From positions 5,667 through 69,666 of the forward strand of contig CAYOFQ010000002.1 in NCBI GenBank assembly GCA_964403585.1: a stretch of 64,000 bases of DNA. Direction: 5' to 3'. Below are positions 33,104 through 56,354 of this stretch, piece by piece. The stretch's first letter is position 1; every line of letters begins with the position of its first letter. Under the pieces are notes generated by a model, which saw only the letters and a program-made list of their open reading frames with translations, was not told the DNA's origin and ran no database searches. The translations under genes and the position numbers were made by a program. Origin of the DNA: an uncultured Gammaproteobacteria bacterium (GTDB lineage Bacteria; Patescibacteriota; Microgenomatia; JALYQM01).

Positions 33104-33121
33104 TTCCTTATTCTATTTGAG

Positions 33122-33208: not shown

Positions 33209-33342
33209 TTAAAATAACTGGGTTGTATCAATAACTATCTGCTTTGATACAAGCCAGGTATTTTAACTGTGGGGTCGTCCTGTAAGGGCGACCTCTCCAA
33301 ACATGCTCCTTATTCTAACACAGATTCAACTGAAAATCTCAC

Positions 33343-33825
33343 CTAGTACAACTTTCGCTCATAAGTAATAACCGGCGTTGTGGAAATAAAAACTTCCGGT
33401 ACACCCTCTTGCCCTAAATTCTCCCCCACCCGCCGTACTCCGTCTATCGTGTGGTCTACAATCCGTCGAGCGACATATTTACTTGTCTGCCACGGATGAG
33501 CATCAAAACAACATGCTAACTCGTAAGCTCTATGTACCAATCGCCCGGTCTTACTCTCGGCGTTTTTACCATAGAAAGCAGTCATACCCCAGGTAAACGC
33601 TGCGCCACCAACATTAATTGCCATTGCCCCTATAGTCGCTGTCCTGGCATCAACCAGATTAAGTGCTGCAGCACCCGCCCAAACCGCATTTTGACCATAT
33701 CCGACTAAACGGACAGGGACATGTGCTGCAAAAAGTATTTTACGCTCATGGCGTTGAAGAAATCCTGCAACCCGTTCTTTTACAGGAGTAAGGAGGTCTA
33801 AATTGTCACGATACTGCTCTAACAT
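33343..33825 (-). CDS. hypothetical protein
   Basis: 160-aa ORF with Gly/Ala-rich hydrophobic stretches; no recognised motif. Confidence 0.45.
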   Translation of the reverse strand: MLEQYRDNLDLLTPVKERVAGFLQRHERKILFAAHVPVRLVGYGQNAVWAGAAALNLVDARTATIGAMAINVGGAAFTWGMTAFYGKNAESKTGRLVHRAYELACCFDAHPWQTSKYVARRIVDHTIDGVRRVGENLGQEGVPEVFISTTPVITYERKLY

Positions 33826-33925
33826 AAGGGTAAATTATACCATCCCGGAAAACAAATACGAAGTTCGACAATCCTGACAAAATTGTCATGGACTCCGTTC
33901 CGCATACACATAACAATAGCAGCAT

Positions 33926-36397: not shown

Positions 36398-36651
36398 AAG
36401 TTACCAAGCATCTTCCAATTGTATTCGCAAGTATTGTAATCTGGCTCTTTTCACTTGTAACTCAAGCATACATAGATATGGCGGTATTTAAACACGCACC
36501 GGTCTTCCCTGCTCCCACATGTTCAGGAACCGGCTACCCTATTGCCTTGTGCAGCAGCAACGGCACCATAACCATTATCGTATGCCTTTTAAATATTACT
36601 CTTATTTTTGGAATACTTTCCCTTATTCGGTGGATCTATAATACGAAATAA
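36394..36651 (+). CDS. small membrane protein (two TM), hypothetical
   Basis: 85 aa; start overlaps the upstream stop (ATGA). Confidence 0.35.
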   Translation: MKVTKHLPIVFASIVIWLFSLVTQAYIDMAVFKHAPVFPAPTCSGTGYPIALCSSNGTITIIVCLLNITLIFGILSLIRWIYNTK

Positions 36652-36654
36652 CAG

Positions 36655-36738
36655 CGGAGAGGGTGGGATTCGAACCCACGAGGCTCATCACCTAGACGTG
36701 TTCGAGACGTCCGCACTCGGCCACTATGCGACCTCTCC
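36655..36738 (-). tRNA. tRNA-Ser(CGA)
   Basis: GGAGAGGUCGCAUAGUGGCCGAGUGCG…GACGU-CUCGAAC-ACGUC…GGUUCGAAUCCCACC; long variable arm. Confidence 0.8.
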
Positions 36739-36837
36739 TTAATATATCTTGTTCATACCTACTGGAGCCTGATAGGCATGAACAAGATATATTATCGTGA
36801 GCGTCGTCCTGTAGGGACGACCTCTAGCCCATTCTAG

Positions 36838-36910
36838 TGCACTCGACAGGAGTCGAACCTGTAACCGTCAGCTCCGCAAGCTGATGCTCTATCCATTAAG
36901 CTACGAGTGC
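36838..36910 (-). tRNA. tRNA-Arg (anticodon read as GCG)
   Basis: GCACUCG acceptor, D-arm GCUU-AAUGGAU-AGAGC, anticodon stem-loop UCAGC-UUGCGGA-GCUGA, T-arm ACAGG-UUCGACU-CCUGU. Confidence 0.7.
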
Positions 36911-36981
36911 CCATCTTTCATGCCTAAGCACAAAACTACCGTCATATTATAACGCACAAAGCCATTTCGCACAATTGAAGA

Positions 36982-37530
36982 TTATTGAGCGGTTTTCTCA
37001 AGAGGAAACTTCTTCGACACCCATTCTGCAGCCCGATCCACCGCTGAAGTATCCTTGCTGTCTTTCAGGATCAACCGTGTTCCAATTACCTGCTCGATTT
37101 GCTCCCGGGTAGCCGGCTCTCGCAACAATAAGTATATTGACCCGGGGAGACTGGCTTTAGTTCGCGCCACCATAATATCATTACCCCAGCGTTTCTCGAA
37201 CCAGTAGTACAGAAGATCCGGCCAGGCATAAAAGTGATTCCCGTTCTTAATTCCTGTCGTAAAAATTTCATTATCAATATCGTCAGGCGGAACGGTATAC
37301 AATACGTACACCAGAAAAACAAACGCAATCACTACGGCAATGACCAGGAACTCCCGCATAAAAAACAGGATCACAATAGATAAAATTGCCATAATAGTCA
37401 CTGTAGTGAAAAAATCTTTATCACGCTTTTTAAATGGGCGTGAAGGAGATCGCCATTGTAAAAGTAACTTTTTTTCTTCCTCAGGAACAATAGCTACCGT
37501 TGGTTGAGAGGAAACAGAAGAAGTGTCCAT
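36982..37530 (-). CDS. membrane protein, hypothetical
   Basis: 182 aa with two central TM helices. Confidence 0.5.
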   Translation of the reverse strand: MDTSSVSSQPTVAIVPEEEKKLLLQWRSPSRPFKKRDKDFFTTVTIMAILSIVILFFMREFLVIAVVIAFVFLVYVLYTVPPDDIDNEIFTTGIKNGNHFYAWPDLLYYWFEKRWGNDIMVARTKASLPGSIYLLLREPATREQIEQVIGTRLILKDSKDTSAVDRAAEWVSKKFPLEKTAQ

Positions 37531-37595
37531 AAGCGAATAAAAAGGATTATACTGAACACAGAATATCAGATGTGCGTAATAATGCGCAAGAGCTA

Positions 37596-39419
37596 TTATC
37601 CAAAAGTAAATGCAAAAACCTGAACACGATCATCTAAAAACTCTAATTCAATAGTCGCATCCGTCCATTCGGCAAAGGTAGCCAAATTGTATAACTTGGC
37701 AGCTTTCACCAGAAGTGAATTATCCCGAACGTCTTTACTGACATTTTTCTTATTAGTCCCCGTAACAGTGATCTTCACTCGCTTCCCATTTACCAATACT
37801 GTCTTAGGTTGTCCGTTCCCCTGACAATATTCACCTGTACAAACAAGCGAATCATCACCGGACGCAATAGGTACACTCACCCCGTCCGACATTACTAAAT
37901 TAATCTCTTTACCAATAAAATGGTAACGGAGTGTACTCCCCTTCTCTGCTTCAGCGTATTCAGGAGTTATTTTCCATCTCCCTCCTAAACTATACTGACT
38001 TGCCGACAAATCGTATCGCAATGAATAAGTGGAAAATGAATCCCGAACAACGCTTTCTTTTGACCTAAATTGCTCTTCATCTAATCGTGCGTAACCAACA
38101 TATGTCTCTGGACTAATATCCCGATCTACCACAACACCCGCTTCCTTAGTAAGTTCATAATCTGCCTGCACACCCCGCTCTGCCAATAATAACTGGATCG
38201 CCCGTTCCATATTCTCATAATCACCTTCTCCAAAATGATAGCGCCGGATTCTTCCCTGTGCATCAATCAGGTAATGTGCCGGCCAGTAATGGTTTTCATA
38301 CGCCCGCCAGGTACCAAAGTCATTATCCATCACCACCGGATACGTCAAACCAAAATCAGCAATTGCTTTCTCTACATTTTCCTGAACCTTTTCAAACGCA
38401 AATTCAGGCGAATGCACACCAATAACGGTGAAACCTTTATCTTTATATTTCTTATGCCAATCCTCAATATACGGCAATGTACGAATACAGTTAATACAGC
38501 TGTAGGTCCAAAAATCCACTAAAACAACGTTTCCCTGTAATGCTTTAAGTGTAAAAGGTTCCGGAGTATTCAACCATTTGGTTGGCTTTACAAACTCGGG
38601 AGCCGGACCGACATCTCTCAACAGAGTAGCGCTATCAAAACGGATATCACGTTGTGGAGTTCCCGGATTCTCACGAAGCTGCTGTAATTGACCCACAACC
38701 TCGCTACTCGATTCATACGAAGCTAAGGGGGTTAATACCCAACTCGGTAAACGCTGTACAATAAAAGTCTGAAAACGGCGGTCAATATTGAACACCAAAG
38801 CTAAAGCTGCCAGGATCATTACCACGCCAAAGAATTGTTGGATTCGCCCGGAATATTTATTAAGCAAACGGAAGCGACTTAATATCTCTTTACCACCATA
38901 CGCAATCATCAACAGCACCGAAGCGGATCCGCAAACATATGCAAAGGTTATCAAAACTGCCTCAATAGTTACTGACTGAGTCGCCACCAAAGTAATAACC
39001 GCCGCCAGTATTGGCCCTGCGCAGGGAACCCACAATAAACCGACTGTCAATCCAATCACTACCCCACCCCAAAATCCCGTCCGCTGTCCGACACTTCCCA
39101 CCTGCCCGCTCAACCGGGAAAAAACCCGCTCCGTGAACTGTGAAAAATACGGTACCACCATGGATAAACCAAACATAAATATTAGAACAATGGAAAGATT
39201 CCGCAGCAAATCCGGCGGCAAATTAAAACGATCTACTAATGCGGTTAAACCCAATGTAAAAAACGTAAAGCTGAAAATAAGTCCGAGGATAACCCCCAAC
39301 GGACGACGCGAACCACCAACAACAGTTGAAGATAGAACAATCGGTAAAATTGGCAATACACACGGTGTTAAAGCAGTAACAAATCCGGAAACAAAGGCAA
39401 AAATGAGAAGAAGTGCCAT
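37596..39419 (-). CDS. cytochrome c-type biogenesis CcdA/DsbD-like transmembrane domain fused to thioredoxin-like (TlpA/ResA-type) domain
   Basis: N-terminal CcdA-like TM helices with paired Cys (ALTPCVLP, LWVPCAGP); central redoxin domain with CxxC (WTYSCINCIRTLPYIEDWHKKYKDKGFTVIGVHSPEF). Confidence 0.75.
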   Translation of the reverse strand: MALLLIFAFVSGFVTALTPCVLPILPIVLSSTVVGGSRRPLGVILGLIFSFTFFTLGLTALVDRFNLPPDLLRNLSIVLIFMFGLSMVVPYFSQFTERVFSRLSGQVGSVGQRTGFWGGVVIGLTVGLLWVPCAGPILAAVITLVATQSVTIEAVLITFAYVCGSASVLLMIAYGGKEILSRFRLLNKYSGRIQQFFGVVMILAALALVFNIDRRFQTFIVQRLPSWVLTPLASYESSSEVVGQLQQLRENPGTPQRDIRFDSATLLRDVGPAPEFVKPTKWLNTPEPFTLKALQGNVVLVDFWTYSCINCIRTLPYIEDWHKKYKDKGFTVIGVHSPEFAFEKVQENVEKAIADFGLTYPVVMDNDFGTWRAYENHYWPAHYLIDAQGRIRRYHFGEGDYENMERAIQLLLAERGVQADYELTKEAGVVVDRDISPETYVGYARLDEEQFRSKESVVRDSFSTYSLRYDLSASQYSLGGRWKITPEYAEAEKGSTLRYHFIGKEINLVMSDGVSVPIASGDDSLVCTGEYCQGNGQPKTVLVNGKRVKITVTGTNKKNVSKDVRDNSLLVKAAKLYNLATFAEWTDATIELEFLDDRVQVFAFTFG

Positions 39420-39518
39420 ACTTCAGTATAGCATAGTGCGGAGAGGATTGGGCGATATTTGAACTTTTCTAAGTCAATCCTCTTGTGCATAAAACAGAAA
39501 AATTCGTAAGATATTATT

Positions 39519-40343
39519 ATGGCTAAGAAAAAGGGTGTCCAAAAATATTTTATACACCTAATTATAGCAGTTATATTAATAACCGGACTATATATAACTA
39601 TCTTCCTAAACCTCATCACTCCTCGTCATTCTAATAATATTAGACCTCAAAAAAATATAATAAATACGCCTACTTCTTCGTTCAAGGCAACTATTCTACC
39701 TATACCGACTCATACACCATATCCAATCAAATATAAAACTTATATAAACAATAAATCTGGGTTTTCTATAAAATATCCAGAAGTTACAGAAGCACTTTGG
39801 ACAGGTTGTGACGTTAATTCACAATCTTCAGGGATGACTAGCGGAATAATTCCAACAAAGTTAATCGAAGATCCGTCTAATGACACTATTTACCTCACCG
39901 TCACAAAATACGCCCATGTAGATATGATAAAAACCGCAAACAGTATGGTTAATGATCCTACATCGTGTAAAGTTGAGGAGGTAAATTTAAACCTAGTAAA
40001 AAATGGATATACTCAAAAACCATACGGACCAAATTATCCTAAACATACAAAGTTCATCTATAAGCAGATCAATAACGATAAAGACTTATCAGCTTTCGCT
40101 CAAGAGGTATATGGGGACAAATGTAATAACATAACAAAAATTCCATCTAACGAACTTAAGGGTATTTACAATATAGAATTTAATAATAGAAACCCAGATA
40201 CCGGATGCTGGATAGGAGCTGTTATCCGCTTTATATATTCACCTAAAAACAGGTTAGCAGTTACTTGGATCTTAGGACATGAACCACCATATCAAATATA
40301 CGGGCAAGTCCACGAGCTAGAAGTTAACTTTTTACAACATTAA
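39519..40343 (+). CDS. membrane-anchored hypothetical protein
   Basis: N-terminal TM LIIAVILITGLYITIFLNLI. Confidence 0.5.
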   Translation: MAKKKGVQKYFIHLIIAVILITGLYITIFLNLITPRHSNNIRPQKNIINTPTSSFKATILPIPTHTPYPIKYKTYINNKSGFSIKYPEVTEALWTGCDVNSQSSGMTSGIIPTKLIEDPSNDTIYLTVTKYAHVDMIKTANSMVNDPTSCKVEEVNLNLVKNGYTQKPYGPNYPKHTKFIYKQINNDKDLSAFAQEVYGDKCNNITKIPSNELKGIYNIEFNNRNPDTGCWIGAVIRFIYSPKNRLAVTWILGHEPPYQIYGQVHELEVNFLQH

Positions 40344-40397
40344 CCCTACATTTACAGATTCTGTAAAGACCTCTTCTGTTATAAACTTGAAGACTAC

Positions 40398-40491
40398 TGG
40401 CGGAGAGGGAGGGATTCGAACCCTCGATACGGGTTTAGGCCCATATAATTTCTTAGCAGGAAATCGCTTTCGTCCACTCAGCCACCTCTCC
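40398..40491 (-). tRNA. tRNA-Ser(GCU), CCA encoded
   Basis: GGAGAGGUGGCUGAGUGG…AUUUC-CUGCUAA-GAAAU…long variable arm…GAGGGUUCGAAUCCCUCCCUCUCCGCCA. Confidence 0.8.
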
Positions 40492-40552
40492 AAAGGTAAC
40501 CTGGAAACTTGAGGAAGTATATCACAAAACAGGCAGAAAATTCTCCCCCATC

Positions 40553-41380
40553 TTACGCAACCCGGTGACGAAGCCGTTTGAACTTGAACAAAAACCAGAT
40601 AAAAGCCACATAATAGACCATAATTGCCAGTTTCATCACACTGAATTCACGGTCAATCCCTACCAAACCCTTAAGCAAGTGTCCCACCATCGTTTCATCA
40701 TCAGGCAGGAAATTCAGTGGTATCGGCACAATACTGGACAAGTGAATATCACCATAAACCTCAAACAACTCCCCCAGTCCCCGCTGCACCAGAGCAGCAC
40801 CCGTTACCACAATTAAAGCCTCTGTGGCCTTAAAAATTTTACGGATCGGGAATTTGGTATACAGGAAGAATATAGCCAACCCAATCACGCTTGCACCGGC
40901 AAATCCCAAAAGCAATCCGACAAAATTCTGGAAAAAGACCGAAAAAAGCGCCGTACTGGCAGTAAATAAAGCTATCTCCGCCCCTTCACGAATCACCATA
41001 AAAAAGACCGTAAAAAAGAGCGAAAAATCAAACGCGTCCGGTCGAACACGTCCGGTTACCGTCGAAATCTGGTCACTATCCTTCTTTTTGAGGCGACCAT
41101 GTAAAGACAAAACTAAATAAACAATAAAGAACCCGGAGAAGGTCATTAAGTATCCCTCAAGCATATCCGCATTGCGTTCAGTCAACACCCCTCTGGCGAG
41201 ATCTCCAAACACATAGGTAAGACTGGAAAGAACTAATGAAAAGATCATTCCCACCCCGGCTGCCCAATAAATCTCACGCTCTTTTTTTAATTCAAGTTTC
41301 CGCGAAATCCCAAGGAAAACACCGGTAATCAGAAAGGCTTCTAAAAATTCACGAAAAGCAACAAGTGCAATAATTAACAT
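40553..41380 (-). CDS. FTR1/EfeU-family high-affinity iron permease
   Basis: Seven TM helices and the two RExxE motifs of the family (FREFLEAFL and VIREGAEIALF). Confidence 0.75.
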   Translation of the reverse strand: MLIIALVAFREFLEAFLITGVFLGISRKLELKKEREIYWAAGVGMIFSLVLSSLTYVFGDLARGVLTERNADMLEGYLMTFSGFFIVYLVLSLHGRLKKKDSDQISTVTGRVRPDAFDFSLFFTVFFMVIREGAEIALFTASTALFSVFFQNFVGLLLGFAGASVIGLAIFFLYTKFPIRKIFKATEALIVVTGAALVQRGLGELFEVYGDIHLSSIVPIPLNFLPDDETMVGHLLKGLVGIDREFSVMKLAIMVYYVAFIWFLFKFKRLRHRVA

Positions 41381-41452
41381 AGATCAACACTATACTAAAA
41401 ATAATATTTTGTGTATTTACAAATAAAACCCGAAGTAGTATAGTAACCTTGC

Positions 41453-42019
41453 ATGAGAAATACTCGTAAAACGCCCAACACTACTTGTGCTTACTGCCAA
41501 ATTCCTTTCTATAAAAAACCTTCAGAAATAAAAAAATATAAGCACACCTTTTGTTCGACTAAATGCTATGGAAAGTTTAGTAGCCACCCCTTAACTTGCA
41601 TTATCTGCGGAAAAGAATACCCAAGAAAATTTCACAAAAAAACCTGTAGCCGCAGCTGCGCTAATAAGCACCGAAGTGGAATAAAATATAAAGTAAATCG
41701 ACCAAGAGACAAAGTCGCTTACTCAACAGGGCTTAAAATACGCTTATTATCTGAAAGAGGCTCATCATGCCAAAGATGTAATTTCCCAAAAACAGAAATT
41801 TTAATTGTTCACCATAAAGACAGGGATAGGACCAACAACAACCTGAAAAATTTGGAGCTTATTTGCCCAAACTGTCATGCTGAAGAACACTATCTAGAAA
41901 AAAACTGGCTAAAAAGATATAATGTTCAGGAATTTAAAGAAAAGCTCCTTTTGAAAGAATCTGCTTACTTTATCTATCGTACGGAGAGGTCGCCTAGTGG
42001 TTTATGGCAGAAGTCTTGA
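41453..42019 (+). CDS. HNH-family endonuclease; 3' end overlaps tRNA-Ser(UGA)
   Basis: Cys-rich N-terminus; HNH core ILIVHHKDRDRTNNNLKNLELICPNCH. There is no in-frame stop before the tRNA, so the last roughly 15 codons read into it. Confidence 0.6.
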   Translation: MRNTRKTPNTTCAYCQIPFYKKPSEIKKYKHTFCSTKCYGKFSSHPLTCIICGKEYPRKFHKKTCSRSCANKHRSGIKYKVNRPRDKVAYSTGLKIRLLSERGSSCQRCNFPKTEILIVHHKDRDRTNNNLKNLELICPNCHAEEHYLEKNWLKRYNVQEFKEKLLLKESAYFIYRTERSPSGLWQKS

Positions 42020-42069
42020 AAACTTCCAGGTGATGAGCCTCGTGGGTTCGAATCCCACCCTCTCCGCCA
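41973..42069 (+). tRNA. tRNA-Ser(UGA), CCA encoded
   Basis: GGAGAGGUCGCCUAGUGG…GAAGU-CUUGAAA-ACUUC…long variable arm…GGGUUCGAAUCCCACCCUCUCCGCCA. Confidence 0.8.
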
Positions 42070-42089: not shown

Positions 42090-42875
42090 ATGTCTCATGA
42101 ACTAGAAATCATACTCCGGGCAATCCAAGAAGCTTCAAAAATCCACCGCAAGTATTTTCAGGACCCTAATCTTACACATACGCCAAAAGGATTATCAGAC
42201 TCAGTTTCTCAGGCAGATCTCGAATCAGAAAAGATAATTCTAGACATACTTACTAAAGAATTCCCTGATTATTCCTTTTTCTCTGAAGAATCCGGACTCT
42301 CGGAAAATAAATCGAACAATCAGTGGATCATCGATCCAATGGACGGATCAAGTAACTTCAAGCTTGGTTTAACAGAAATCGGTATAACTATAGCCTTGCT
42401 ATCAGAAGGCCAAATAATAGCCGGAGCAGTTGCCGCGCCTTTACTAAACATTCTTGCTTATGCCGAAACAGGCGGGGGAACGTATCTTAATGGCACTAAA
42501 ATTACTCCTGACTCAACACCTCAAAGTAACATCATCTCCTTAATTGCCGGATACGCGGCTGTAGAAAGCCAAACCAAGGTTTGGACTGGATTACAAGGCA
42601 AAGTCAAACGGATTCTAATGCAATGGGCACCAACCATAGATTCCTTACTATTGCTTTCCGGTAAAACCGATGCCTTAATATCGTTGGACAACGAAATAGA
42701 AGATCAAGCCGCAGCGCTACTACTCTTCAAAGAGGCCGGATTCACTACCCGCACACTGGATAATAAAGACTATGATCTGAACGAATTTTCACTCCTATTA
42801 CCCAAAATGGTCATCTCCCGTAATGAGGATATAAGTAACAGATTAATAGCTGAAGTTAATCAAAGCCTGCAATGA
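42090..42875 (+). CDS. inositol-monophosphatase (IMPase/SuhB) family protein
   Basis: Metal-binding motifs FSEESG and WIIDPMDGSSNF. Confidence 0.75.
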   Translation: MSHELEIILRAIQEASKIHRKYFQDPNLTHTPKGLSDSVSQADLESEKIILDILTKEFPDYSFFSEESGLSENKSNNQWIIDPMDGSSNFKLGLTEIGITIALLSEGQIIAGAVAAPLLNILAYAETGGGTYLNGTKITPDSTPQSNIISLIAGYAAVESQTKVWTGLQGKVKRILMQWAPTIDSLLLLSGKTDALISLDNEIEDQAAALLLFKEAGFTTRTLDNKDYDLNEFSLLLPKMVISRNEDISNRLIAEVNQSLQ

Positions 42876-43666
42876 AACTCCTTAATATCAACATCGGCAT
42901 CAAAATAGACAACACCCCAGAAATTGCTGAGTTCATCAAGCAAACGAATGCCGACATTGTCGCCGTTCAGGAAATAGTTCGCCACCTTGAACCTTCCGTA
43001 TATGACCAATATAAAACAAAAGAAGGCATTGAAAAGATCGTTAACAACGTCTATCCATATAAGTTCTTCGGTCCGCTCTGGGTAACGGAAGCATTTAGAA
43101 AAAACGGCAAAATTCACCGTGATTTTAACGGTATAATTGAGCAAGGAAATGAAATTCTATCCAAATTTCCCATCACCGAAGCAACCAATGAGCATTACTA
43201 CAAATCCTATTCCTACGCACTTGATTGGACCAATTGGGAAGCAGAAGACCATGGGCGCGCCGTTCAAATTGTTGAAATTACCGTCAACAACAAACCATTA
43301 CAAATACTCAACTTACACGGAATATGGACAAAAGATAAGCTTGGAGATCAGCGAACCGACGCCGAATGCGAATATATTATTTCAGCTGCTCAACGGAAAA
43401 AAATACCAACTATTATTACCGGCGACTTTAACTTACTCCCCCACTCTAACTCAATAAAAATCATAAACAGTGAGTACAATAACTTAATCAAAAAATTCAA
43501 CATCACCAGCACCCGTCCGGAATTTAAAGACAACATCGATATAGGAAACAACGTGGTAGACTATATTTTTATAAGCAAAGATATCATAGTAAACAGCTTT
43601 GAAGTCATCCAGACTAATATTTCCGATCATTTACCACTTCTTCTTGATTTCGAGATTGAACAATAG
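42872..43666 (+). CDS. endonuclease/exonuclease/phosphatase (EEP) family protein
   Basis: ADIVAVQEI, ITGDFNL and SDHLPL catalytic motifs; start overlaps the upstream stop (ATGA). Confidence 0.75.
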   Translation: MKLLNINIGIKIDNTPEIAEFIKQTNADIVAVQEIVRHLEPSVYDQYKTKEGIEKIVNNVYPYKFFGPLWVTEAFRKNGKIHRDFNGIIEQGNEILSKFPITEATNEHYYKSYSYALDWTNWEAEDHGRAVQIVEITVNNKPLQILNLHGIWTKDKLGDQRTDAECEYIISAAQRKKIPTIITGDFNLLPHSNSIKIINSEYNNLIKKFNITSTRPEFKDNIDIGNNVVDYIFISKDIIVNSFEVIQTNISDHLPLLLDFEIEQ

Positions 43667-45534: not shown

Positions 45535-46310
45535 ACAAAACAGTCCTGATCACAGGAGCTTCCGGTGGACTCGGCTATGCGTTCGCCAAGCTGTATGCTC
45601 AAAAGAACTACACACTTATTCTCACTGCTCGCAATCACCAACGATTAAATGACATTGCTGCAGAACTGCTGGCCCAACACCATGTTACAGTTATCACCAT
45701 TCCCAAAGATCTGTCACAGACCAACGCACCTCAAGAGATACATCAGGAGATCCAAAAAACTAACCACCAGGTTGACATACTTATTAATAACGCCGGATTC
45801 GGCAACTATGGAGAATTTGCCGATGTTGAGTGGTCGCGGCAGAGCAACCTGTTACAAGTGAACATCGTCGCGTTAACACACCTCACACACCTTATTAGTA
45901 GTGATATGAAGAAAAGAAACTCCGGTCAAATTCTAAATATTGCCTCAACAGCCGGATTCCTGCCTGGTCCACTGATGGCTACATATTATGCCAGTAAAGC
46001 CTATGTCGTATCGTTTTCCGAAGCCATCCATGAAGAATTAAAAAAATACGGCATTACGGTAACTTGCCTATGCCCGGGCGTCGTTAATACCGGTTTTGGC
46101 AAAAACGCCGGGGCGCAAAGTACCCGTTTATTTAATACCTTTCACCTTGAGCCGGACACAGTTGCCGAAATGGGATATACCGGACTGCAACAAAGAAAAA
46201 ATGTCGTAATTGTGAATTGGGTGAATAAATTCCTGATCACAGCCAGCAAATTCGTACCAATAACTCTTACGCTAAAGGCAGTACGCTATATCCAGGAAAG
46301 CAAAAATTAG
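45531..46310 (+). CDS. short-chain dehydrogenase/reductase (SDR) family oxidoreductase
   Basis: TGASGGLG cofactor motif, NNAG, catalytic YxxxK (YYASKAY). Confidence 0.85.
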   Translation: MNKTVLITGASGGLGYAFAKLYAQKNYTLILTARNHQRLNDIAAELLAQHHVTVITIPKDLSQTNAPQEIHQEIQKTNHQVDILINNAGFGNYGEFADVEWSRQSNLLQVNIVALTHLTHLISSDMKKRNSGQILNIASTAGFLPGPLMATYYASKAYVVSFSEAIHEELKKYGITVTCLCPGVVNTGFGKNAGAQSTRLFNTFHLEPDTVAEMGYTGLQQRKNVVIVNWVNKFLITASKFVPITLTLKAVRYIQESKN

Positions 46311-47407
46311 CCAGTAGCCTGAAGAATAATTCCCTGTCCTTTTTTAGTAGTTAATACGAACGGAGCGTGGGAAATTTTTATCTTTTCCCGTAAACGATGT
46401 ATAAGTTGATCAAGTGCATCATCTGAATATTTGTCTTTCCACCCGTCTCCCCACACTACCCCGGCTAAAGCAGATCTGCTGATAAGCTCTCCTGCATGCA
46501 AAGTTAGATACCTGAAAATATCACCCTCTTGTCCCGTTAGCTCTTGAACTATTTTATTTTCCGCAACACTATATCCCTTAAGAACTAAATACCGGGATAG
46601 TAGCGGATTAAAAATCACTCCATCACAGGTAAAACCAAACTTTTCCAAGAATAACCTGTCTAAATAGGATCCACTTCCGGAGGCTAAAACTGCAACCTTG
46701 TCTTCGGGCAAATCAGTTAGGATGGATTCCAATCGTAACAATAGGGAATCCTGCTCAAGCAGATATGAAAGACTCCAGTCAGCCTGAGGATAATCTTTTC
46801 GTAAAAGATACAGTGATTTAATTAATCCGTCATGGCCACGACTCCACTCATAAATCTCCTTACTTTGCTCCAGTGTAAGCGAAAATGCATATCGCTCACT
46901 AAAGTTAGCAATCAGGCGAAGGGTATCATCAAAATCTAAATGGGTAAGCACAAACATCGACCGGGTCAAGCTCTTGTTACGCTTTTCTAATGCGGCATAG
47001 ACTGATTTAAGGTACGCGAGTGTTATGCATATAAATTTCATCTGTAAGGTCTCACGAACAGCATCAATTTCTGCGAATAAATCAGACACATCCTCACTGA
47101 GAGCCAAATCTACAACATAAACCGAGGGAGCTGAAGTTTCACACATTAACCGGACAAGTGATTCCATTTCTTCCCTGCTTTTTATCTTTACGGTAGTTAC
47201 ACGATAACTTCCACTCTCAGCGCGTAAAGCCTCACCAAGGGCATCGAAAACCACATTCTTACCCTCATCGGTCATGCTAATTATTGAACAGGGTTCCGCC
47301 TGCCGAATACGACTCAAAGCAAAATCCACGGCCTTCTGATGATGGTCGGTACACAGTTTTGGACCCGGTATTGCTTTTGGTATAGTCATAGCTCGTAATT
47401 GTATCAT
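46307..47407 (-). CDS. protein with C-terminal OmpR/PhoB-type winged-helix DNA-binding domain and unknown N-terminal domain
   Basis: The C-terminus LTGQEGDIFRYL…ELISRSALAGVVWGD…SDDALDQLIHRLREKI matches the Trans_reg_C pattern. There is no receiver-domain Asp pocket and no Walker A. Confidence 0.5.
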   Translation of the reverse strand: MIQLRAMTIPKAIPGPKLCTDHHQKAVDFALSRIRQAEPCSIISMTDEGKNVVFDALGEALRAESGSYRVTTVKIKSREEMESLVRLMCETSAPSVYVVDLALSEDVSDLFAEIDAVRETLQMKFICITLAYLKSVYAALEKRNKSLTRSMFVLTHLDFDDTLRLIANFSERYAFSLTLEQSKEIYEWSRGHDGLIKSLYLLRKDYPQADWSLSYLLEQDSLLLRLESILTDLPEDKVAVLASGSGSYLDRLFLEKFGFTCDGVIFNPLLSRYLVLKGYSVAENKIVQELTGQEGDIFRYLTLHAGELISRSALAGVVWGDGWKDKYSDDALDQLIHRLREKIKISHAPFVLTTKKGQGIILQATG

Positions 47408-47409
47408 AG

Positions 47410-49164
47410 TTACCTGATCCCTACCCTTTCACGCACAAATAACTTTCTAAAACTATGATGTTCTTTAATATCCGGCAGCACGACAATAATCTCTGCATTG
47501 ACATCAAGATAGTCACCATTCGAAAAACCGTATTCACCTGATCGCGAGGGAGGCAAAGCTATCGGAGCAAGCAGTTGAATCCCTGCAAATGTTCGCTCAT
47601 GAAGAAATTGACTCCGGAACCAGGCACATGGATTCCGCTCTATACTGGAAAGCTGATCGGATTGACGTAAGTTTGACAACACAACCCCTGCGCCCGGTTT
47701 ATAAAGGAGCAAATTAGCCGTTACCCGGTACCGGTCTAAGTCAGTGTTAACCAGCCTATGGACAAGTACCGAAAAGTCTTTTTCCTCTTTAATCTGTGAA
47801 CGATACCGGATTCCATCTTTTGTAGCGCGTAAATAGTCAGGCAGTGAGTACAAAGCTGCCGGATCAAATAAAGACTTAAATGCCATCAAATAATGAGTAG
47901 CATTCGCATCAATCATCCCCTCACCTTGTACTAAACGATCAAGATTAATATCAAAGTCCGTTAAGTGCGCCTGCACACGCAGAGCGGCCTCTGGACCAAG
48001 AAGATCATGTAAATATGCATAGCGGGGATTCTCAGGATCGGCAAGAAAACCCGCCGCTAATTGGGCATAGTATTCAACCTGTTGCCGATACGGTTCTCGC
48101 CGTAAAAAAACTCGCGTTCCTGACTTTACTGAAGCATCAATCTGCCCTTTGCTCACCATATCCAACCCTGCATCAACCAATAGCAGTCTAAGGGAACTTT
48201 CCTTCCGCGCCGGATGAAGCATTTTCATTATCCGGATCTTGCGCTCCGTATCATAAACTACCCGATCTTCTTTTGTGCTGGCAACACGACTGCGCAATAC
48301 TTCCAGACTATACCTGTCATTAAGCACCGCCAGTAACGAAGAGAACCGGGTTAAATCATTCTTGTTGTCCCCCGGACCAAACCATCCGCCTTCTTCCAGC
48401 ACTGCGTCCTCTGAAAGTTCGAGCGACTGAATTATCTTTCCTAAACCGTGAAAGTTAGAATACACCAGCTGATGATACTCATGTGAGAATCTCTGTGTGT
48501 TCAATTCAGGATTACATACAATTGCCAGGTTAAGCATTAACGACTGCACTAATGCCGGATTATATTCAAAATCCCGCTGCACATACTCCTCGTCTCCACT
48601 AAGTAAGGCAAAATGTAATCGAGCTAAGCTAAAGAGATTATGGCAGGTATCAAAGAATATATACCGGTCCTGATCGGTTTTGAAGTTAAGACTGCTTAAA
48701 AAAGCTTCGGTAACCGGAGAGGTATACAGCATTCCCCGCAAAAACCGTTGAAAATGGTAATCCTCAGTCTCCACCAGCGGAAGTACTCCCGGCTTAATGG
48801 CCAATTCACGGGTAGCCAACAGACACGTCGCTTCGATCTCCCGTGAATGATAATATACCGGCTGAGCATCAGAAGTTTGCCGAGCGATCCGCTCAGCCAT
48901 TTGAAAGATATGTAGCCCTACCCCAGAATAATGATACAAACGGGCCAGCTGTGCCCGATCCTCAGGAAGCCCGATTAAATCTGCTAGATGTTCACAAAAT
49001 TCACTCCAGCGCGGGTCGGCATCCCTGCGCAATAGCACATCAAGCTGAGCCGGAGATTCTGTATGAATACGTTTTAACCGTACATGTGGAGCCAGTATCC
49101 CGGCTGCTATCTCTCGAGCATGAGCTTCAATATTCGAATAAGTGAGATCTTCCCCTGAACACAT
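47410..49164 (-). CDS. hypothetical protein (584 aa), middle gene of a three-gene operon
   Basis: Long ORF with a 3-nt gap to the downstream gene; no recognised motif. Confidence 0.5.
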   Translation of the reverse strand: MCSGEDLTYSNIEAHAREIAAGILAPHVRLKRIHTESPAQLDVLLRRDADPRWSEFCEHLADLIGLPEDRAQLARLYHYSGVGLHIFQMAERIARQTSDAQPVYYHSREIEATCLLATRELAIKPGVLPLVETEDYHFQRFLRGMLYTSPVTEAFLSSLNFKTDQDRYIFFDTCHNLFSLARLHFALLSGDEEYVQRDFEYNPALVQSLMLNLAIVCNPELNTQRFSHEYHQLVYSNFHGLGKIIQSLELSEDAVLEEGGWFGPGDNKNDLTRFSSLLAVLNDRYSLEVLRSRVASTKEDRVVYDTERKIRIMKMLHPARKESSLRLLLVDAGLDMVSKGQIDASVKSGTRVFLRREPYRQQVEYYAQLAAGFLADPENPRYAYLHDLLGPEAALRVQAHLTDFDINLDRLVQGEGMIDANATHYLMAFKSLFDPAALYSLPDYLRATKDGIRYRSQIKEEKDFSVLVHRLVNTDLDRYRVTANLLLYKPGAGVVLSNLRQSDQLSSIERNPCAWFRSQFLHERTFAGIQLLAPIALPPSRSGEYGFSNGDYLDVNAEIIVVLPDIKEHHSFRKLFVRERVGIR

Positions 49165-49212
49165 AAGGCCTACAATAAAAATTATAGGCCATTATACCAC
49201 AAAAAGGTATTA

Positions 49213-50391
49213 TTAGGCTTGGAACTGTCCACCACGAACTGCAGTTATGCTGCCATTCTGGTGCTCTGTTACAGCGACAACCGGAATTATCCCATCAGGA
49301 AGAGTTCCATTCTTCTGCAAAGTTTTTGCTAACGCAGGCATTGTCAGTCCGGCTTGCTTTCCTGCTTTAGCAGTCGCAGCCAAAACAAATTCTGACTCTG
49401 TTAAGGCAGAAGAATCCGCCTGGACACCGGCAAGAACAGCCCGCAACCCTTCCAATCCGCTTGCATAACGCATCTCGGCAACTTGCGGATATAAGGGGAA
49501 CAGTGGCTGACCATCCTGATCAGGCACAACAACTTTTACAGTATCGTCAGAAGTTAATCCTTCTTTAGTATATTGTGCTACCAGCAATTCACCATGATCA
49601 CCCGGGAGAAATTCAATATCAACATTTTTACCTGCCCACTTAGCACGGACAATAGCTTTAACAACATCTCCTACTAATCCCTGCCGGGCATCATATTCTC
49701 CGCTGCGGGAGTTCATTTGAGCCAGATGACCACACCCTAAGTATTTAACCATTAAGTCAAGCACGGCATCCTGTGTTGCTCGTGTATCGCTAACACCCAT
49801 CTCATCCAAAACACGCGCAGGATCGTTAATAAGTTCAACTATCCATTGATCTGCATCAACCTGTGCAGCGCGGGCAACCACCGCTTCCGGTAAATCTTCT
49901 ACCGCAGCTAAATTATGCGCCATTTTCTGCGCAGCATGCATATCTGAATGGAGATACACACCGCCATTCTGCTCTATATCACCATCCACTACTTTCTGGA
50001 CCATCTCGGGAGTGAACACAGTACCGGTTAGATCTTCAGCAGTGCTGATCTTTACTGCAATAATACCTGCATCGCCGGCAGGAACATTAACACTCTCTTT
50101 TTTACGACGCCCGTCAATACAGCAAATTTCTGCAATCTCAGCTACTTTCTGTTCCGCAGCAGCTCTAAATCTATCCTCTGCAATTGCTTCGGGATTAGTC
50201 TCTATCTCACGTTGTGTAGATTGTTCTTGCATGACACCTCCTTGTCCTCCAATAGACTCACTACGGCCATCAGTTAATCCGACAACCCGCCGAGGCGGAA
50301 TTGGCCCTTGGTGCCCTCGCTGATCGTTTCCGGAATCGGGAGCAAATAAGCGCTGGTCCATCTCAATAGGCAAATAAATTTCTCTCGGCAT
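49213..50391 (-). CDS. hypothetical protein (392 aa), first gene of a three-gene operon
   Basis: Long GC-richer ORF; no recognised motif. Confidence 0.5.
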   Translation of the reverse strand: MPREIYLPIEMDQRLFAPDSGNDQRGHQGPIPPRRVVGLTDGRSESIGGQGGVMQEQSTQREIETNPEAIAEDRFRAAAEQKVAEIAEICCIDGRRKKESVNVPAGDAGIIAVKISTAEDLTGTVFTPEMVQKVVDGDIEQNGGVYLHSDMHAAQKMAHNLAAVEDLPEAVVARAAQVDADQWIVELINDPARVLDEMGVSDTRATQDAVLDLMVKYLGCGHLAQMNSRSGEYDARQGLVGDVVKAIVRAKWAGKNVDIEFLPGDHGELLVAQYTKEGLTSDDTVKVVVPDQDGQPLFPLYPQVAEMRYASGLEGLRAVLAGVQADSSALTESEFVLAATAKAGKQAGLTMPALAKTLQKNGTLPDGIIPVVAVTEHQNGSITAVRGGQFQA

Positions 50392-50490
50392 AAGTATACT
50401 CCTTAAAAAACAAAAATATCAGAATCTGACAAAATCCTGATAATCTTGACCGAATATACTCCTTAAGCCTGATATTTACAAGCGACCGTT

Positions 50491-51231: not shown

Positions 51232-52956
51232 ATGCTAATTACATCTATGAAATCTGCCCACCTCAAAGTAATTACCATAGCATTTTTAGTAACCGTCGGA
51301 ACCTGGGTAGCATTAATGGGCGCACGCGGTGCCAACCAGGTAGCCTTGCATGAAGTAAATAAACCTTCCATTATTGGAGCAGAACCCCAGATTAACGTAG
51401 CTGCAAAAATGGGTCCGCTCGTACCGAATCCCCGCCAGGAAACAGACGACCCGGCTATCTGGATCCACCCTACTAATCCCAGCAAAAGCTTCATGATTCT
51501 TTCAGATAAATATAAAGGAATGTTTGTCTTTGATTTTAATGGAAATCAAATTCAACAATTACAAGCTACAGATTGGAATTTATCCGGCAGAGTAAATAAC
51601 ATCGATCTGCGCAAAGGCTTTAAACTCGGCAATGAAACTGTTGATGTAGTCGCCGGAAATTTCCGCGATGCCGGTAAATTGGGTATGGCTAAAGTAAATC
51701 CGAATTGGGGCGGAACGGTAAAACCATTAGAAGTAATCCCGGGCACTCCAACCATTTCCAGTGCAAGTTATGGATTTACTCTATATAAGCGCAAATCCGA
51801 CGGCCAACTGTTTATGTTTGATCAACCTAAATCAAGCGCACCTATAAAGCAATGGAAAATTGACGGAAGCTCTGGAACAATTACAACGACCTTTGTGAGA
51901 GATGTAGCAACAATGGGAGTTGCCGAAGGATACGTCGCCGACGATGATGCCGGATTAGTATATTTCACTGAAGAAGGCACCGGCATTCATAAATATAATG
52001 CCGATCCGGATAATCCGGTTAAAACTCGCTTGAATCTTTTCGCTAACGGTTCAGATACCAAACCGGATCGCGAAGGGTTAACACTCTATGCCTGTAACGA
52101 CGGAACCGGTTACTTAATCCTCTCCAACCAGGGATACAGCAACTTTAAAGTATACAACCGTCAGGGCAATAATGAGCTGGTTAAAACTTTTACTGCAGAT
52201 AAATCCAAAGGCACCGATGGCTTGGATGTTACTGCCTATGCAGCACCCGGTTTCCCGAACGGATTTGCCATAATCCAAAACGATGCCTCTACAGCCGGCG
52301 GAGCGACCACAATGAGTTATTATGTCTATGATTGGGCATCAATCGCACAGTCGGATATGAAAATCTGCCCGAACGGTGGCGGTGGTGGACCAACTATTAA
52401 CCCGACACCGACTAACAACCCTACCCCAACCATCCATCCTACTCTTACAGCTAATCCAACCCCAACAGAAGACCCGTTTACACTCTGCGACAAAAACGCC
52501 TATTCCATCAACAATCCGGCCGGATGGAATTTCACCGAAGAGTGCTTACAAAGAGATAGTGTTATCTATCAAAACGATAACCGCTTTACCTTCTTCGGAG
52601 TACCAACAGACTACAATGAAATATCATATATAAAAACACCTAACAATGTCATCAAAGACAGCACAACCCTTAGCTGGTCAATTAATCTAACCAAAACTGC
52701 CGACGTCTACGTGTTCTACCGAAAAATCCCCGGCCAAACAGTACCGTCCTGGCTATCAACATACACCAAAGTAACCCCTGCTGGATACGCAGATCTACCG
52801 CAGCATATCTTAAGAAAAAATGAGTTAGGCTTAATTGGCGTATATGATATTTACAGGAAACGCTCAACACCCGGTAACGTCAGCTTCGGAGCAGCGTCAA
52901 CGTCCTCGGTAAACGCTTACTCCATGTACATCACAGCGATAAAAACCAATATCTAA
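51232..52956 (+). CDS. secreted beta-propeller phytase (3-phytase, BPP family) with C-terminal extension
   Basis: Signal peptide; blocks matching Bacillus PhyC from memory (ETDDPAIWIHPTNPSKS, YGFTLY, EGYVADDDAGLVYFTEE, DREGLTLYACNDGTGYLILSNQGYSNFKVYNRQG, TDGLDV); Pro/Thr linker and about 150-aa C-terminal domain. Confidence 0.8.
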   Translation: MLITSMKSAHLKVITIAFLVTVGTWVALMGARGANQVALHEVNKPSIIGAEPQINVAAKMGPLVPNPRQETDDPAIWIHPTNPSKSFMILSDKYKGMFVFDFNGNQIQQLQATDWNLSGRVNNIDLRKGFKLGNETVDVVAGNFRDAGKLGMAKVNPNWGGTVKPLEVIPGTPTISSASYGFTLYKRKSDGQLFMFDQPKSSAPIKQWKIDGSSGTITTTFVRDVATMGVAEGYVADDDAGLVYFTEEGTGIHKYNADPDNPVKTRLNLFANGSDTKPDREGLTLYACNDGTGYLILSNQGYSNFKVYNRQGNNELVKTFTADKSKGTDGLDVTAYAAPGFPNGFAIIQNDASTAGGATTMSYYVYDWASIAQSDMKICPNGGGGGPTINPTPTNNPTPTIHPTLTANPTPTEDPFTLCDKNAYSINNPAGWNFTEECLQRDSVIYQNDNRFTFFGVPTDYNEISYIKTPNNVIKDSTTLSWSINLTKTADVYVFYRKIPGQTVPSWLSTYTKVTPAGYADLPQHILRKNELGLIGVYDIYRKRSTPGNVSFGAASTSSVNAYSMYITAIKTNI

Positions 52957-53111: not shown

Positions 53112-54005
53112 ATGTCACACATAACAAAAACCTTAAGAACAGGAGAATGGATTCATATTGAAAATCCAGACGCAAAAGACATAACCTTTCTACATACACA
53201 ATTCCCTTTTATTCATTCAGTAAACTTAGAAGATATACAAGAATCTGTTATTCGTTCCAAACTTGATACCTATCATGACCATATATTCGTATCTTTAGCA
53301 GTTCCCATAGACTATACACCAGGCACAAGATTAGAATACCTTGAGTTAACAATAATTTTTAATAAAGATATAATCATTACAGTAACCAACTCAAAAAAAA
53401 ACACCTCCAGACTATTCGAAGATATCTATAAACCCCAAGAAAATCCAGCAATAAGTGCATATGAGTTAAGTAGAAGACTTTACGCAAAATCAAGTAACGT
53501 TATCGCTCACATGGGCAAAGCTGTAGCCGATATTGATTCTGATATTCTTAACACACGCTCAACTACTGTCATTAGAAAAATATCAATATTACAAAGAAAT
53601 CTTATATATTTTGCAACCACTTTAGATGCAGCCTTACCTATATTCGAAAAACTTGAAAACACAACACATTCATTTCTCCAAGAACAAATAAGCGATTATT
53701 GGGGAGACATTATTGATACACTCTACGAACAAAGAGATCTTCTAGACGATTATTACAATATTTTGAAGGAATTATCTAATTCCCATCAAATTATTCTAGA
53801 CTACCATACTAATCACGTTATTCATATTCTAACGATTATCTCAGTTATATTTTTACCCTTGAATTTAATTGCAGGTATTTACGGTATGAATTTTGATTTT
53901 TTGCCTGGTACACACTATCCATATGGGTTCACTTTCACTATTCTAAGCATGGTTTTAATTACAGTTATTACTTTTATTGTAATCAAATACAAGAAATGGT
54001 TATAA
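53112..54005 (+). CDS. corA: CorA-family magnesium/cobalt transporter
   Basis: C-terminal two-TM region with the GMN motif (IAGIYGMNFDFLP). Confidence 0.8.
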   Translation: MSHITKTLRTGEWIHIENPDAKDITFLHTQFPFIHSVNLEDIQESVIRSKLDTYHDHIFVSLAVPIDYTPGTRLEYLELTIIFNKDIIITVTNSKKNTSRLFEDIYKPQENPAISAYELSRRLYAKSSNVIAHMGKAVADIDSDILNTRSTTVIRKISILQRNLIYFATTLDAALPIFEKLENTTHSFLQEQISDYWGDIIDTLYEQRDLLDDYYNILKELSNSHQIILDYHTNHVIHILTIISVIFLPLNLIAGIYGMNFDFLPGTHYPYGFTFTILSMVLITVITFIVIKYKKWL

Positions 54006-54733: not shown

Positions 54734-55895
54734 ATAAATTCACTAGTCAACCTAAAATTCAAACAGATCACGCACCTCAACACCCAATCGCACAGCAAGC
54801 TTTATCAAATACCACACCGTTGTATTCACATATCCATTTTCAATTTTAGCCGGGACCGAAGTGAAAAGTATTATCTTCTCTCAATAATCATTTACAGATG
54901 TGGAAAAGTTACCGGTCTACAAGACAAACCATTTATGACAAAAAATCAGGGGTTGGAACCAGTACTTTATCCAGTCCTATTAAGGTTTTTGATGCTTTAA
55001 AAACATCAAAAGAAAATGATGTGGAGATGCCGATCTATGAAATCGGGTCTGGAATCTGTAATTAAAAACATCTACATAGCATAGTCGGTACTTATATCTC
55101 GTACCACAACGATCCTACCGACAGGAGAAGTGATACAAAGGTCAAAGTCTTAAAGGATTACAGCGACCACCCCGAATCCTCGCATACAATCTTTGTTTAC
55201 GCCCTACTCCGCTCGATTGTAAAATCAGAATAGAACGTCCATTGTTTAGCTAAAGAAAAGTTTAGCCAAATGCAGGATAGCTAACGCCTGCTACAGCGTT
55301 ACCCAAGCCGAAGTTTGGGAACTTTGCAGCGATTTTGTCAGCTATTGATGTAGAAGAATCTGCATCTATATTTTAGTCCCGTTTTTACGACTCTTGAGAC
55401 CATCGTCGGCTATGCAGTTTTTAAAGAGCACATCCCATCGAAACAACACATCCCCATGAGATTTTATGTTAAGACTAGTGCTTAACAAGACTGAATTATA
55501 ACACATTTTAAGCCATTTTTCCAGTAAAATAAACCTGCCAAACCGCTAATAGCAGAGCAAAGCTTTAAACGCAAGCAGAGCGAAGCCTTAATCGTATCAC
55601 TGGCAAGCTCGACAAGAAGGGTATAATTACCCTGTTGACATACATACACTAATGATATAACATATAAATATACTTACAGTATAACAGTCATCACTCGCTG
55701 TAAGTGTTCCTTAAAAATTCCTTTTCTGATTTCGTCGCAGACCCCGGGATCATATAAAAAGGGCACAATACATGTCCTGTCAGTATCTCATTATAGGTGC
55801 CGCTAAATTGGATAAGGAATTTATGAATAAACCCGTCTTTGAAACATAAGGCGGGTTTATTTTTATGCAAAGCCTTTCTCCCTTTACCCCTACAC

Positions 55896-55904
55896 TGGTA
55901 TAAT
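55896..55904 (+). promoter_or_regulatory. Extended -10 promoter element (TGGTATAAT) 6 nt upstream of the smpB ATG, implying a leaderless transcript
   Basis: TGnTATAAT consensus read directly; no room for a Shine-Dalgarno sequence. Confidence 0.4.
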
Positions 55905-55910
55905 ACGCTC

Positions 55911-56354
55911 ATGAAATCACTCGTCTACAACAAACGAGCCAAATTCGACTATTTTCTGGAAGACAAATACGAGGCAGGTATGGTACTTACCGGAGGAGAA
56001 GTCAAATCGATCCGGGAAGGCCGTGCAAGCCTCCAGGATAGCTTTGTGCGGGTTAAAAATGGTGAGGCTTACCTATTGAATGCCTTTATTAATCCCTACA
56101 GCTTCGCCGATAACAGAAACCTCGATCCACGCCGGGAACGCAAACTGTTACTCCATAAAAAACAAATCAACGAACTGATGGCTAAAAGTAATGGCAAAAA
56201 TACCACCATAGTTCCCGTTTCTTTCTACAACAAGAACAACACCATTAAAGTAGAGATCGCCATTGGTAAAGGTAAGAAACAATACGATAAACGCGCCGCT
56301 ATCAAGAAACGCGACTTAGATAAAAAAATCCAGCAGGAAATGAGGATTAGATAG
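55911..56354 (+). CDS. smpB: SsrA-binding protein SmpB
   Basis: MKSLVYNKRAKFDYFLEDKYEAGMVLTGGEVKSIREGRASLQDSFVRV…RKLLLHKKQI matches SmpB throughout. Start set at 55911 rather than the tracked 55839. Confidence 0.85.
   Translation: MKSLVYNKRAKFDYFLEDKYEAGMVLTGGEVKSIREGRASLQDSFVRVKNGEAYLLNAFINPYSFADNRNLDPRRERKLLLHKKQINELMAKSNGKNTTIVPVSFYNKNNTIKVEIAIGKGKKQYDKRAAIKKRDLDKKIQQEMRIR

Follow-up and report, generated by a model that had tools for sequence, protein, structure and literature searches.

An orphan gene pair encoding a receiver-less OmpR-type winged-helix protein, and the gene beside it, in an uncultured bacterium

Introduction

Do three neighbouring genes on one strand, all encoding uncharacterised proteins, amount to one functional system? 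The question is raised by a locus in a stretch of 64,000 nucleotides (nt) of DNA from an uncultured Gammaproteobacteria bacterium (GTDB lineage Bacteria; Patescibacteriota; Microgenomatia; JALYQM01; contig CAYOFQ010000002.1 of assembly GCA_964403585.1, positions 5,667 to 69,666 of the forward strand); this whole stretch is called the window here. Three consecutive open reading frames (ORFs) on its minus strand, of 392, 584 and 366 amino acids (aa), had been proposed from the letters of the DNA alone (the sequence-only reading) to form an operon and a candidate for an undescribed regulatory or defence-type module. We favour another answer, to which we give about an even chance: the locus is a composite, in which an independent 392-aa gene stands next to a tightly coupled, lineage-specific pair of 584- and 366-aa genes that encodes a pseudo-ATPase/winged-helix regulator with its partner.

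Results and Discussion

The gene pair is missing from the same locus in relatives

The ORF positions (Table 1) and the gaps of 48 nt (392-aa/584-aa) and 2 nt (584-aa/366-aa) on which the sequence-only reading was built are correct. A homolog of the 392-aa protein, P0003 (340 aa, 48% identity), is encoded in a metagenome-assembled genome, at loci L003 and L004 and at the equivalent L009, whose arrangement duplicates that of L003; these are the only related genomes found. Their gene order (phytase, ComF-like gene, 340-aa homolog, short-chain dehydrogenase/reductase (SDR; adh_short) and DUF4199-like gene) has the same flanks as the window, and nucleotide similarity between the window and the relative is ~67-80% from the SmpB/transfer-messenger RNA (tmRNA) region through the 392-aa gene. 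In the relative, 9 nt separate the stop codon of the 340-aa gene from that of the SDR gene, which is convergent with it, and there is no trace of either the 584-aa or the 366-aa gene. The corresponding interval of the window, from the 392-aa gene to the SDR gene, measures 2,902 bp (46311-49212) and holds the 584-/366-aa pair. Since the C-terminal lengths of the 392-aa protein and of the SDR are unchanged between the two, the insertion or deletion (indel) corresponds to exactly the gene pair. Both genes of the pair are singletons and are present or absent together. The three genes are thus not syntenic elsewhere, and the three-gene module is not supported in the form proposed: L003, L004 and L009 all hold the 392-aa homolog without the other two.

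It seems to us quite unlikely that the three genes nevertheless function as a single operon whose products, the 392-aa protein included, cooperate in a new regulatory or defence module. The genes do share a strand, short gaps and similar codon usage, and all three are uncharacterised. Set against this are the 392-aa homolog that occupies the same locus in the relatives without the other two, the occurrence of the 392-aa family with unrelated neighbours in at least 80 other genomes, the lack of a PADLOC match and the 48-nt spacer, with its hairpin and possible internal promoter. The spacer contains TGgTATAAT, an extended -10-like element (49199-49191), and a stable 10-bp hairpin, GGCCTATAAT/ATTGTAGGCC (49190-49167), a terminator-like match that ends 2 nt before the ATG of the 584-aa ORF; the 76-nt stretch with the hairpin folds at -21.8 kcal/mol (z = -2.56). 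With this hairpin in the spacer, co-transcription of all three genes is not evident. A promoter scan of the spacer gave no matching -35 element, and a reading of it no clear Shine-Dalgarno site before the 584-aa ATG. Given the weak U-tract and the missing -35 element, we only infer that transcription may end after the 392-aa gene and start separately for the pair, with which the spacer is compatible. The 366-aa gene begins after a gap of 2 nt from the 584-aa stop codon, at an ATG preceded by a purine-rich stretch, which suggests that these two genes are probably translationally coupled. In our view, the best explanation is that the 392-aa gene is a resident gene of the lineage, functionally independent of the two genes downstream.

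The 584- and 366-aa ORFs are real genes, as their lengths, native codon usage and identity in two assemblies indicate, and their sequence carries no sign of recent arrival. That the GC content of the three genes lies above the local background, as the sequence-only reading had it, holds at best marginally (0.419, 0.459 and 0.476 against 0.44-0.45 for the flanking genes; ~0.43-0.44 for a typical ORF of the window). In GC content at third codon positions (GC3; 0.35-0.42) and in codon usage they rank with the most typical of the 44 window ORFs, and the codon-usage distances of the 584-/366-aa pair to the window, 0.149 and 0.161, are among the lowest of these. Two Logan contigs match the window with 100% identity, so that the sequence of the pair is the same in two independent assemblies; they hold no differing positions from which population variation could yield a ratio of nonsynonymous to synonymous substitutions (dN/dS). 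Recent horizontal transfer of the pair was considered and rejected, on the strength of the native GC3 and codon usage, the absence of flanking repeats (terminal inverted or direct repeats around the pair are at chance level only) and the absence of phage, plasmid and viral matches. The stop codon of the 366-aa gene overlaps that of the SDR gene and leaves no room for the ends of a mobile element. Since the window and the relative differ by several further indels nearby, little can be concluded about mobility just from finding the pair in one and not in the other.

Of all the readings considered here, we hold it to be the least probable that one or both of the two ORFs are non-functional, either decaying or spurious. 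Such a view can draw on the lack of homologs, without which purifying selection is not demonstrable, on the degenerate ATPase motifs described below and on the start of the 584-aa ORF without a Shine-Dalgarno site. Yet chance is very unlikely to produce uninterrupted frames of 584 and 366 codons in DNA of ~44% GC; both frames show native codon usage, and the 366-aa one encodes an intact winged helix that scores above threshold and an alpha/beta domain that is foldable.

The 366-aa protein

The C-terminal part of the 366-aa protein is a DNA-binding winged helix of the OmpR/PhoB type. Trans_reg_C matches it with an expectation value (E) of 3.1e-11 and 43.6 bits, against a Pfam cut-off of 26.2; solved effector domains of WalR/VicR/YycF in the PDB match it with E 3e-8 to 2e-6, phrog_731 with E 2e-9, and the best matches also include RpaB and CusR/SilR. 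Response-regulator models of NCBIfam cover the effector part only, with scores far below their cut-offs, and there is no match to Response_reg, the CheY-like receiver, at E <= 1-10. A winged helix without a receiver, as the sequence-only reading had it, is therefore what this protein carries at aa 289-359. No full-length relative of the protein was found and no homolog outside the winged helix, an absence less firm than that reported below for the 584-aa protein, which was the query that the exhaustive search covered. In the NCBI annotation the protein has 322 aa, with its start at Met45. This version would cut off the predicted elements a0 and b1 of the N-terminal domain, making the 366-aa form more plausible.

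The N-terminal part was approached through a single-sequence AlphaFold2 (AF2) model, with a mean predicted local distance difference test score (pLDDT) of 45 and values of 55-78 for aa 20-130. Over these residues the model runs a0-b1-a1-b2-a2-b3-a3-b4-a4, followed by a helical lid region. Foldseek searches of the PDB with this model retrieve almost only AAA+ proteins (DnaA, E 1e-4; IstB, RFC, RuvB, TnsC, ORC), and those of BFVD, an independent viral library, retrieve RFC clamp loaders and DnaC-type loaders (best E 5e-5), with template modelling (TM) scores that are low, at 0.25-0.48. A degenerate Walker A, S44-MTDEGKN51, lies at the P-loop position, and V96YVVD100 (VYVVDL) resembles a Walker B. 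Neither a canonical Walker A, GxxxxGK[ST], nor a canonical Walker B, hhhhDE, is present in the protein, and no AAA-family hidden Markov model (HMM) matches it at E <= 10. 'SRGHDGLIKSLYLL', which is without the arginine, presumably occupies the place of the sensor-2 'GxxR' helix of the AAA+ lid, an assumption that we treat as a lead and not as a test. As modelled, with low confidence, the N-terminal part resembles an AAA+ fold in which the Walker motifs are degenerate.

The statement of the sequence-only reading that the three proteins have no recognisable catalytic motifs holds in the strict sense, as none of them contains a strict Walker A, HExxH or CxxC. It overlooks the degenerate P-loop and the Walker-B-like motif of the 366-aa protein as well as the invariant Cys/His motifs of the 392-aa protein, to which we return below. 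Weak Pfam matches to zf-HC2, DUF1491, Tc-R-P and UPF0302 were dismissed, all of them being below the cut-offs.

Which known regulators does this protein resemble? Its C-terminal Trans_reg_C effector is common to the OmpR/PhoB response regulators, atypical orphans included, but its N-terminal part, at 280 aa, is over twice as long as a receiver, its fold matches are to AAA+ rather than CheY-like proteins, and no histidine kinase gene lies near its gene. SARPs carry their winged helix at the N-terminus, ahead of BTAD, whereas that of the 366-aa protein is C-terminal, and no BTAD, NB-ARC or TPR was detected in this protein. As the defining features of the two families (a receiver in one, an N-terminal winged helix with BTAD in the other) are absent, the 366-aa protein is not a member of either the response regulators or the SARPs. 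The large SARP/AfsR proteins and the STAND regulators of the MalT/LAL type resemble it in joining an OmpR-type winged helix (AfsR) or a helix-turn-helix (HTH; MalT) to a P-loop nucleoside triphosphatase (NTPase) that serves for oligomerisation or as a switch, AfsR being composed of SARP, NOD and TPR parts (PMC10936776). Proteins of the AfsR and MalT type also have a helical sensor region and are the nearest functional analogue of an NTPase-like switch that drives a DNA-binding domain. The 366-aa protein differs from them in its reversed domain order, in its degenerate NTPase motifs, in the lack of sequence homology outside the winged helix and in that the helical part, if there is an equivalent, is encoded by a separate upstream gene.

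A third group of proteins, comprising the AAA+ initiators and loaders (DnaA, Orc1/Cdc6) and the transposition helpers IstB and TnsC, supplies the best structural matches and would share with the 366-aa protein, as modelled, the order of an AAA+ base, a lid and a C-terminal helical or winged-helix DNA-binding domain. Unlike theirs, the Walker A/B and sensor-2 residues of the 366-aa protein are not conserved, as far as a low-confidence model can place them; its DNA-binding domain is of the OmpR type and not Bac_DnaA_C or the winged helix of Cdc6, and its gene has no replication or transposition context. A mobile element or a replication module, such as IstA/IstB of IS21, TniA/TniB of Tn5053 or an initiator-and-loader pair, might have been domesticated or have decayed to leave the pair as its remnant, but we consider this very unlikely. 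A protein of ~580 aa followed in tight coupling by an AAA+-like one of ~300-370 aa would recall istA-istB or tniA-tniB; IstB, TnsC, DnaA, DnaC and ORC rank high among the fold matches of the 366-aa model; and a tmRNA gene, a common kind of integration target, is situated ~6 kb from the pair. However, conserved phytase, ComF-like and 392-aa genes stand between that tmRNA gene and the pair, the 584-aa protein gives no rve/DDE, integrase, Rep or helicase signal even at E <= 1, there are no terminal repeats and no phage, plasmid or viral match, and the overlapping stops of the 366-aa and SDR genes leave element ends no space. To our knowledge, moreover, an OmpR-type winged helix is not a feature of helper ATPases of the IstB/TniB type, which we count against such an origin.

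The 584-aa protein and a proposed mechanism for the pair

The 584-aa protein has no credible homolog in the searches made. A word-indexed search of 5.8 billion proteins matched it only to itself. From 1.84 billion cluster representatives, searched exhaustively with phmmer, it retrieved itself and P0007, which was rejected as spurious because the match is inflated by repeats: one ~50-aa stretch of the query (414-474) aligns with 12 repeat copies at ~30 bits each. Nothing was found in Pfam, NCBIfam, PADLOC, PHROGs or the PDB sequences, or in collections of phages, plasmids and viral contigs. The protein is soluble and acidic to neutral, and neither transmembrane segments nor internal repeats occur in the pair, nor any similarity of the 584-aa protein to the 366-aa protein. 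Its single-sequence AF2 model (pLDDT 33) is mostly alpha-helical over aa 1-475 and then continues as a ~110-aa non-helical tail; at this pLDDT, the Foldseek matches of the model are meaningless and were set aside.

We take the 366-aa protein to be, most likely, a regulator of transcription. Having lost the canonical Walker A/B and sensor-2 residues, its AAA+-like domain would act as a switch, through oligomerisation or a change of conformation, rather than as a motor. This pseudo-AAA+ switch, instead of a receiver, could then control the binding of DNA by the C-terminal OmpR-type winged helix. The 584-aa protein, a soluble and probably helical orphan, may be the partner, either as a signal-sensing or scaffold subunit or as the first product to be regulated. 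The regulatory half of the earlier proposal stays plausible for the pair, with its non-receiver N-terminal domain joined to an OmpR-type winged helix. The defence half finds no PADLOC match, no defence neighbours and no signature of mobility or composition.

One version of the defence proposal would make the pair an undescribed anti-phage system, composed of an AAA+/STAND-like DNA-binding sensor and an effector, and we rate it as improbable to the same degree as a mobile-element remnant. It would account for the variable presence of the pair at a locus that is conserved in related genomes, for the orphan status and fast evolution that are typical of defence genes, and for an AAA+-like domain in the 366-aa protein. 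Nonetheless, no PADLOC-DB 2.0 family matches any of the three proteins at E <= 1, there is no PHROG match (that of the winged helix aside), and no nuclease, protease, TIR, SIR2 or transmembrane effector signature is seen. The neighbours are metabolic genes, not defence genes. Defence NTPases usually retain their NTPase motifs, and those of the 366-aa protein are degenerate. Finally, codon usage is native and signs of mobility are missing, and with many other indels nearby the indel alone tells little.

Several points weigh against our favoured reading of the locus as an independent gene beside a pseudo-ATPase/winged-helix regulator and its partner. The AAA+ assignment comes from the single-sequence AF2 model, with its low mean pLDDT and TM-scores, and no HMM detects AAA. 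It is from adjacency only that the 584-aa protein is argued to be a partner or sensor, and no candidate binding sites were identified for the winged helix. The hairpin in the spacer is a weak terminator with a poor U-tract, and the 392-aa gene and the pair could still be co-transcribed. In addition, one other related lineage is sequenced, at ~70% nucleotide identity, and a scan of JGI metagenomes for more relatives that would polarise the indel found none; gain and loss of the pair are not distinguishable.

If the favoured reading is true, the 366-aa protein would have an unusual layout for an OmpR winged-helix regulator, with a degenerate AAA+-like switch in the place of the receiver and a separately encoded orphan partner at its side. 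It would also provide a further example of P-loop pseudo-enzymes that serve as regulatory modules in poorly sampled bacteria. Large orphans are common in this genome, four of the ten large window ORFs examined being without a Pfam match. The pair is a singleton in such an orphan-rich uncultured genome.

The 392-aa gene and its rhodanese-associated family

All homologs of the 392-aa ORF align from its Met54, and AAGGAGGT, a Shine-Dalgarno site, lies just upstream of the corresponding ATG (50232). The ORF is thus probably over-extended, and its true product would have 339 aa; residue numbers below count from Met54. In the intergenic region that separates the ORF from the divergent ComF-like gene (50392-50490), TTAAGGAGTATA occurs in two copies ~60 nt apart, the second of which supplies both Shine-Dalgarno site and spacer for the ATG at 50391, the annotated but probably over-extended start; the counterpart of this region in L003 measures only 24 nt.

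A genome scan found at least 80 loci with relatives of the 392-aa protein, almost all in Myxococcota (Nannocystis, Corallococcus, Polyangium, Archangium) and a few in Planctomycetota and Acidobacteriota. With the 392-aa protein as query, E is 1.2e-89 for P0003 and 1e-16 to 2e-17 for members fused to rhodanese. Identity is 48% between the window protein and P0003 and only ~25-30% between these two and the rest of the family. In an alignment of 38 family sequences (A3), the invariant residues include C38, D40, G41, R42, P51, G53-D-A-G56, H95, D97, G166-C-G-H169, H213 and E215, which make up the motifs C38xDGR42, P51xGDAG56, H95xD97, GC167GH169 and GxH213xE215. The window protein keeps every invariant column and carries the family motifs CxDGR, PGDAG, HxD, GCGH and GxHxE. 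A pattern of invariant Cys, His and Asp is as expected of an active site or a metal site and suggests that the family consists of enzymes or metal-binding proteins.

Like the rest of this unnamed, rhodanese-fused family, the 339-aa window protein has the whole core of ~330 aa with each of the invariant residues. It differs from the others in lacking the N-terminal rhodanese domain (PF00581), which is found in 36 of the 38 members (P0004 and P0005, for example; the JGI name is "rhodanese-related sulfurtransferase") and is missing from the window protein and P0003 only. For the core there is no counterpart in Pfam, NCBIfam or the PDB, and profile searches of the PDB with the family gave matches confined to the rhodanese part. 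The catalytic Cys of rhodanese is kept in five of the 36 members that have the domain (L016, L031, L037, L068 and L081) and is mostly Ser elsewhere, making it unsafe to infer a simple sulfurtransferase; this role, considered because of the rhodanese fusion, is weakened accordingly. As a separate observation, the change from Cys to Ser suggests that the domain is a regulatory or binding pseudo-rhodanese in most of the family. An origin from beta-carbonic anhydrases, which CxDxR with a His 57 residues later might recall, was rejected for want of similarity at the profile level, the HxxC zinc ligands included: hhalign of A3 with E. coli Can/CynT gave a probability of 2.1%, and no Pro_CA match was found.

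No recurrent neighbour of the family occurs in more than five of 48 loci, a count that comes from crude ORF calling and is noisy in high-GC genomes. The sole neighbour noted is a zinc-dependent alcohol dehydrogenase gene (Zn-ADH) that adjoins the genes of P0004 and P0005. As the more usable outcome of the analysis, the 392-aa family represents a conserved, unnamed domain with Cys/His motifs in dozens of cultured myxobacteria (Corallococcus, Nannocystis, Polyangium), where it is experimentally accessible. A bolder view of the locus, which we think unlikely, would see in the pair an unseen two-protein system, made of a pseudo-AAA+/OmpR-winged-helix protein and a large helical orphan, that senses a signal (possibly phage or other foreign DNA), acts on DNA and would be a family lacking detectable sequence relatives among ~15 billion predicted proteins, and separately in the 392-aa family a new metal- or Cys-dependent enzyme fold that partners a rhodanese or pseudo-rhodanese.

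Context of the locus in the window

The window is ordinary chromosomal DNA, with genes for DnaG, a type I restriction-modification methylase, SpoIID, a DsbD-like protein, SmpB/tmRNA and several tRNAs. The features of the locus and of its surroundings are collected in Table 1.

Table 1. Positions in the window of the genes, domains and other features discussed in the text.
Feature	Position	Strand	Basis or remark
366-aa ORF	46307-47407	minus	ORF list
Winged-helix DNA-binding domain, aa 289-359	46331-46543	minus	PF00486 (Trans_reg_C)
Putative AAA+-like alpha/beta core, ~aa 20-157	46937-47350	minus	AF2 model and Foldseek
584-aa ORF	47410-49164	minus	ORF list
Spacer between the 392-aa and 584-aa genes	49165-49212	minus	sequence reading
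392-aa ORF	49213-50391	minus	ORF list
tmRNA gene (Rfam RF00023, 91 bits) adjoining smpB	55019-55455 and 55839-56354	minus and plus	both kept in L003
Group I intron (RF00028, 79.7 bits, full length)	18451-18657	minus	outside any ARAGORN tRNA
Three high-GC ORFs	24269-24958, 25672-26514, 29677-30939	plus	GC 0.58-0.65, GC3 0.75-0.84

Between the 3' end of the tmRNA gene and the phytase gene, the window has a low-GC CorA gene (53112-54005, GC 0.31) and a gene for a 199-aa membrane protein, and L003 has a different, 259-aa gene in the same interval; the tmRNA gene may be an integration hot spot. Around the locus, a beta-propeller phytase gene (PF02333), an inositol monophosphatase-family gene and an Exo_endo_phos phosphatase gene lie within 10 kb (42090-43666 and 51232-52956), a cluster that hints at the scavenging of inositol phosphates or phosphate. 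The block of phytase, ComF-like gene, 392-aa family gene and SDR gene is kept in the relative.

Further away, the group I intron is adjoined by a low-GC ORF (18685-19401, minus) that has a weak HTH_23 match only and might be homing-endonuclease-like. The three high-GC ORFs show the most deviant codon usage of the window, in a genome of ~43% GC, and none of them matches Pfam significantly; foreign DNA acquired recently, chance ORFs in GC-rich non-coding sequence and a chimeric assembly are all possible explanations. Four tRNA-Ser genes (GGA, CGA, GCU and UGA) and a tRNA-Arg(GCG) gene are found together within 9 kb, at 33121-42069.

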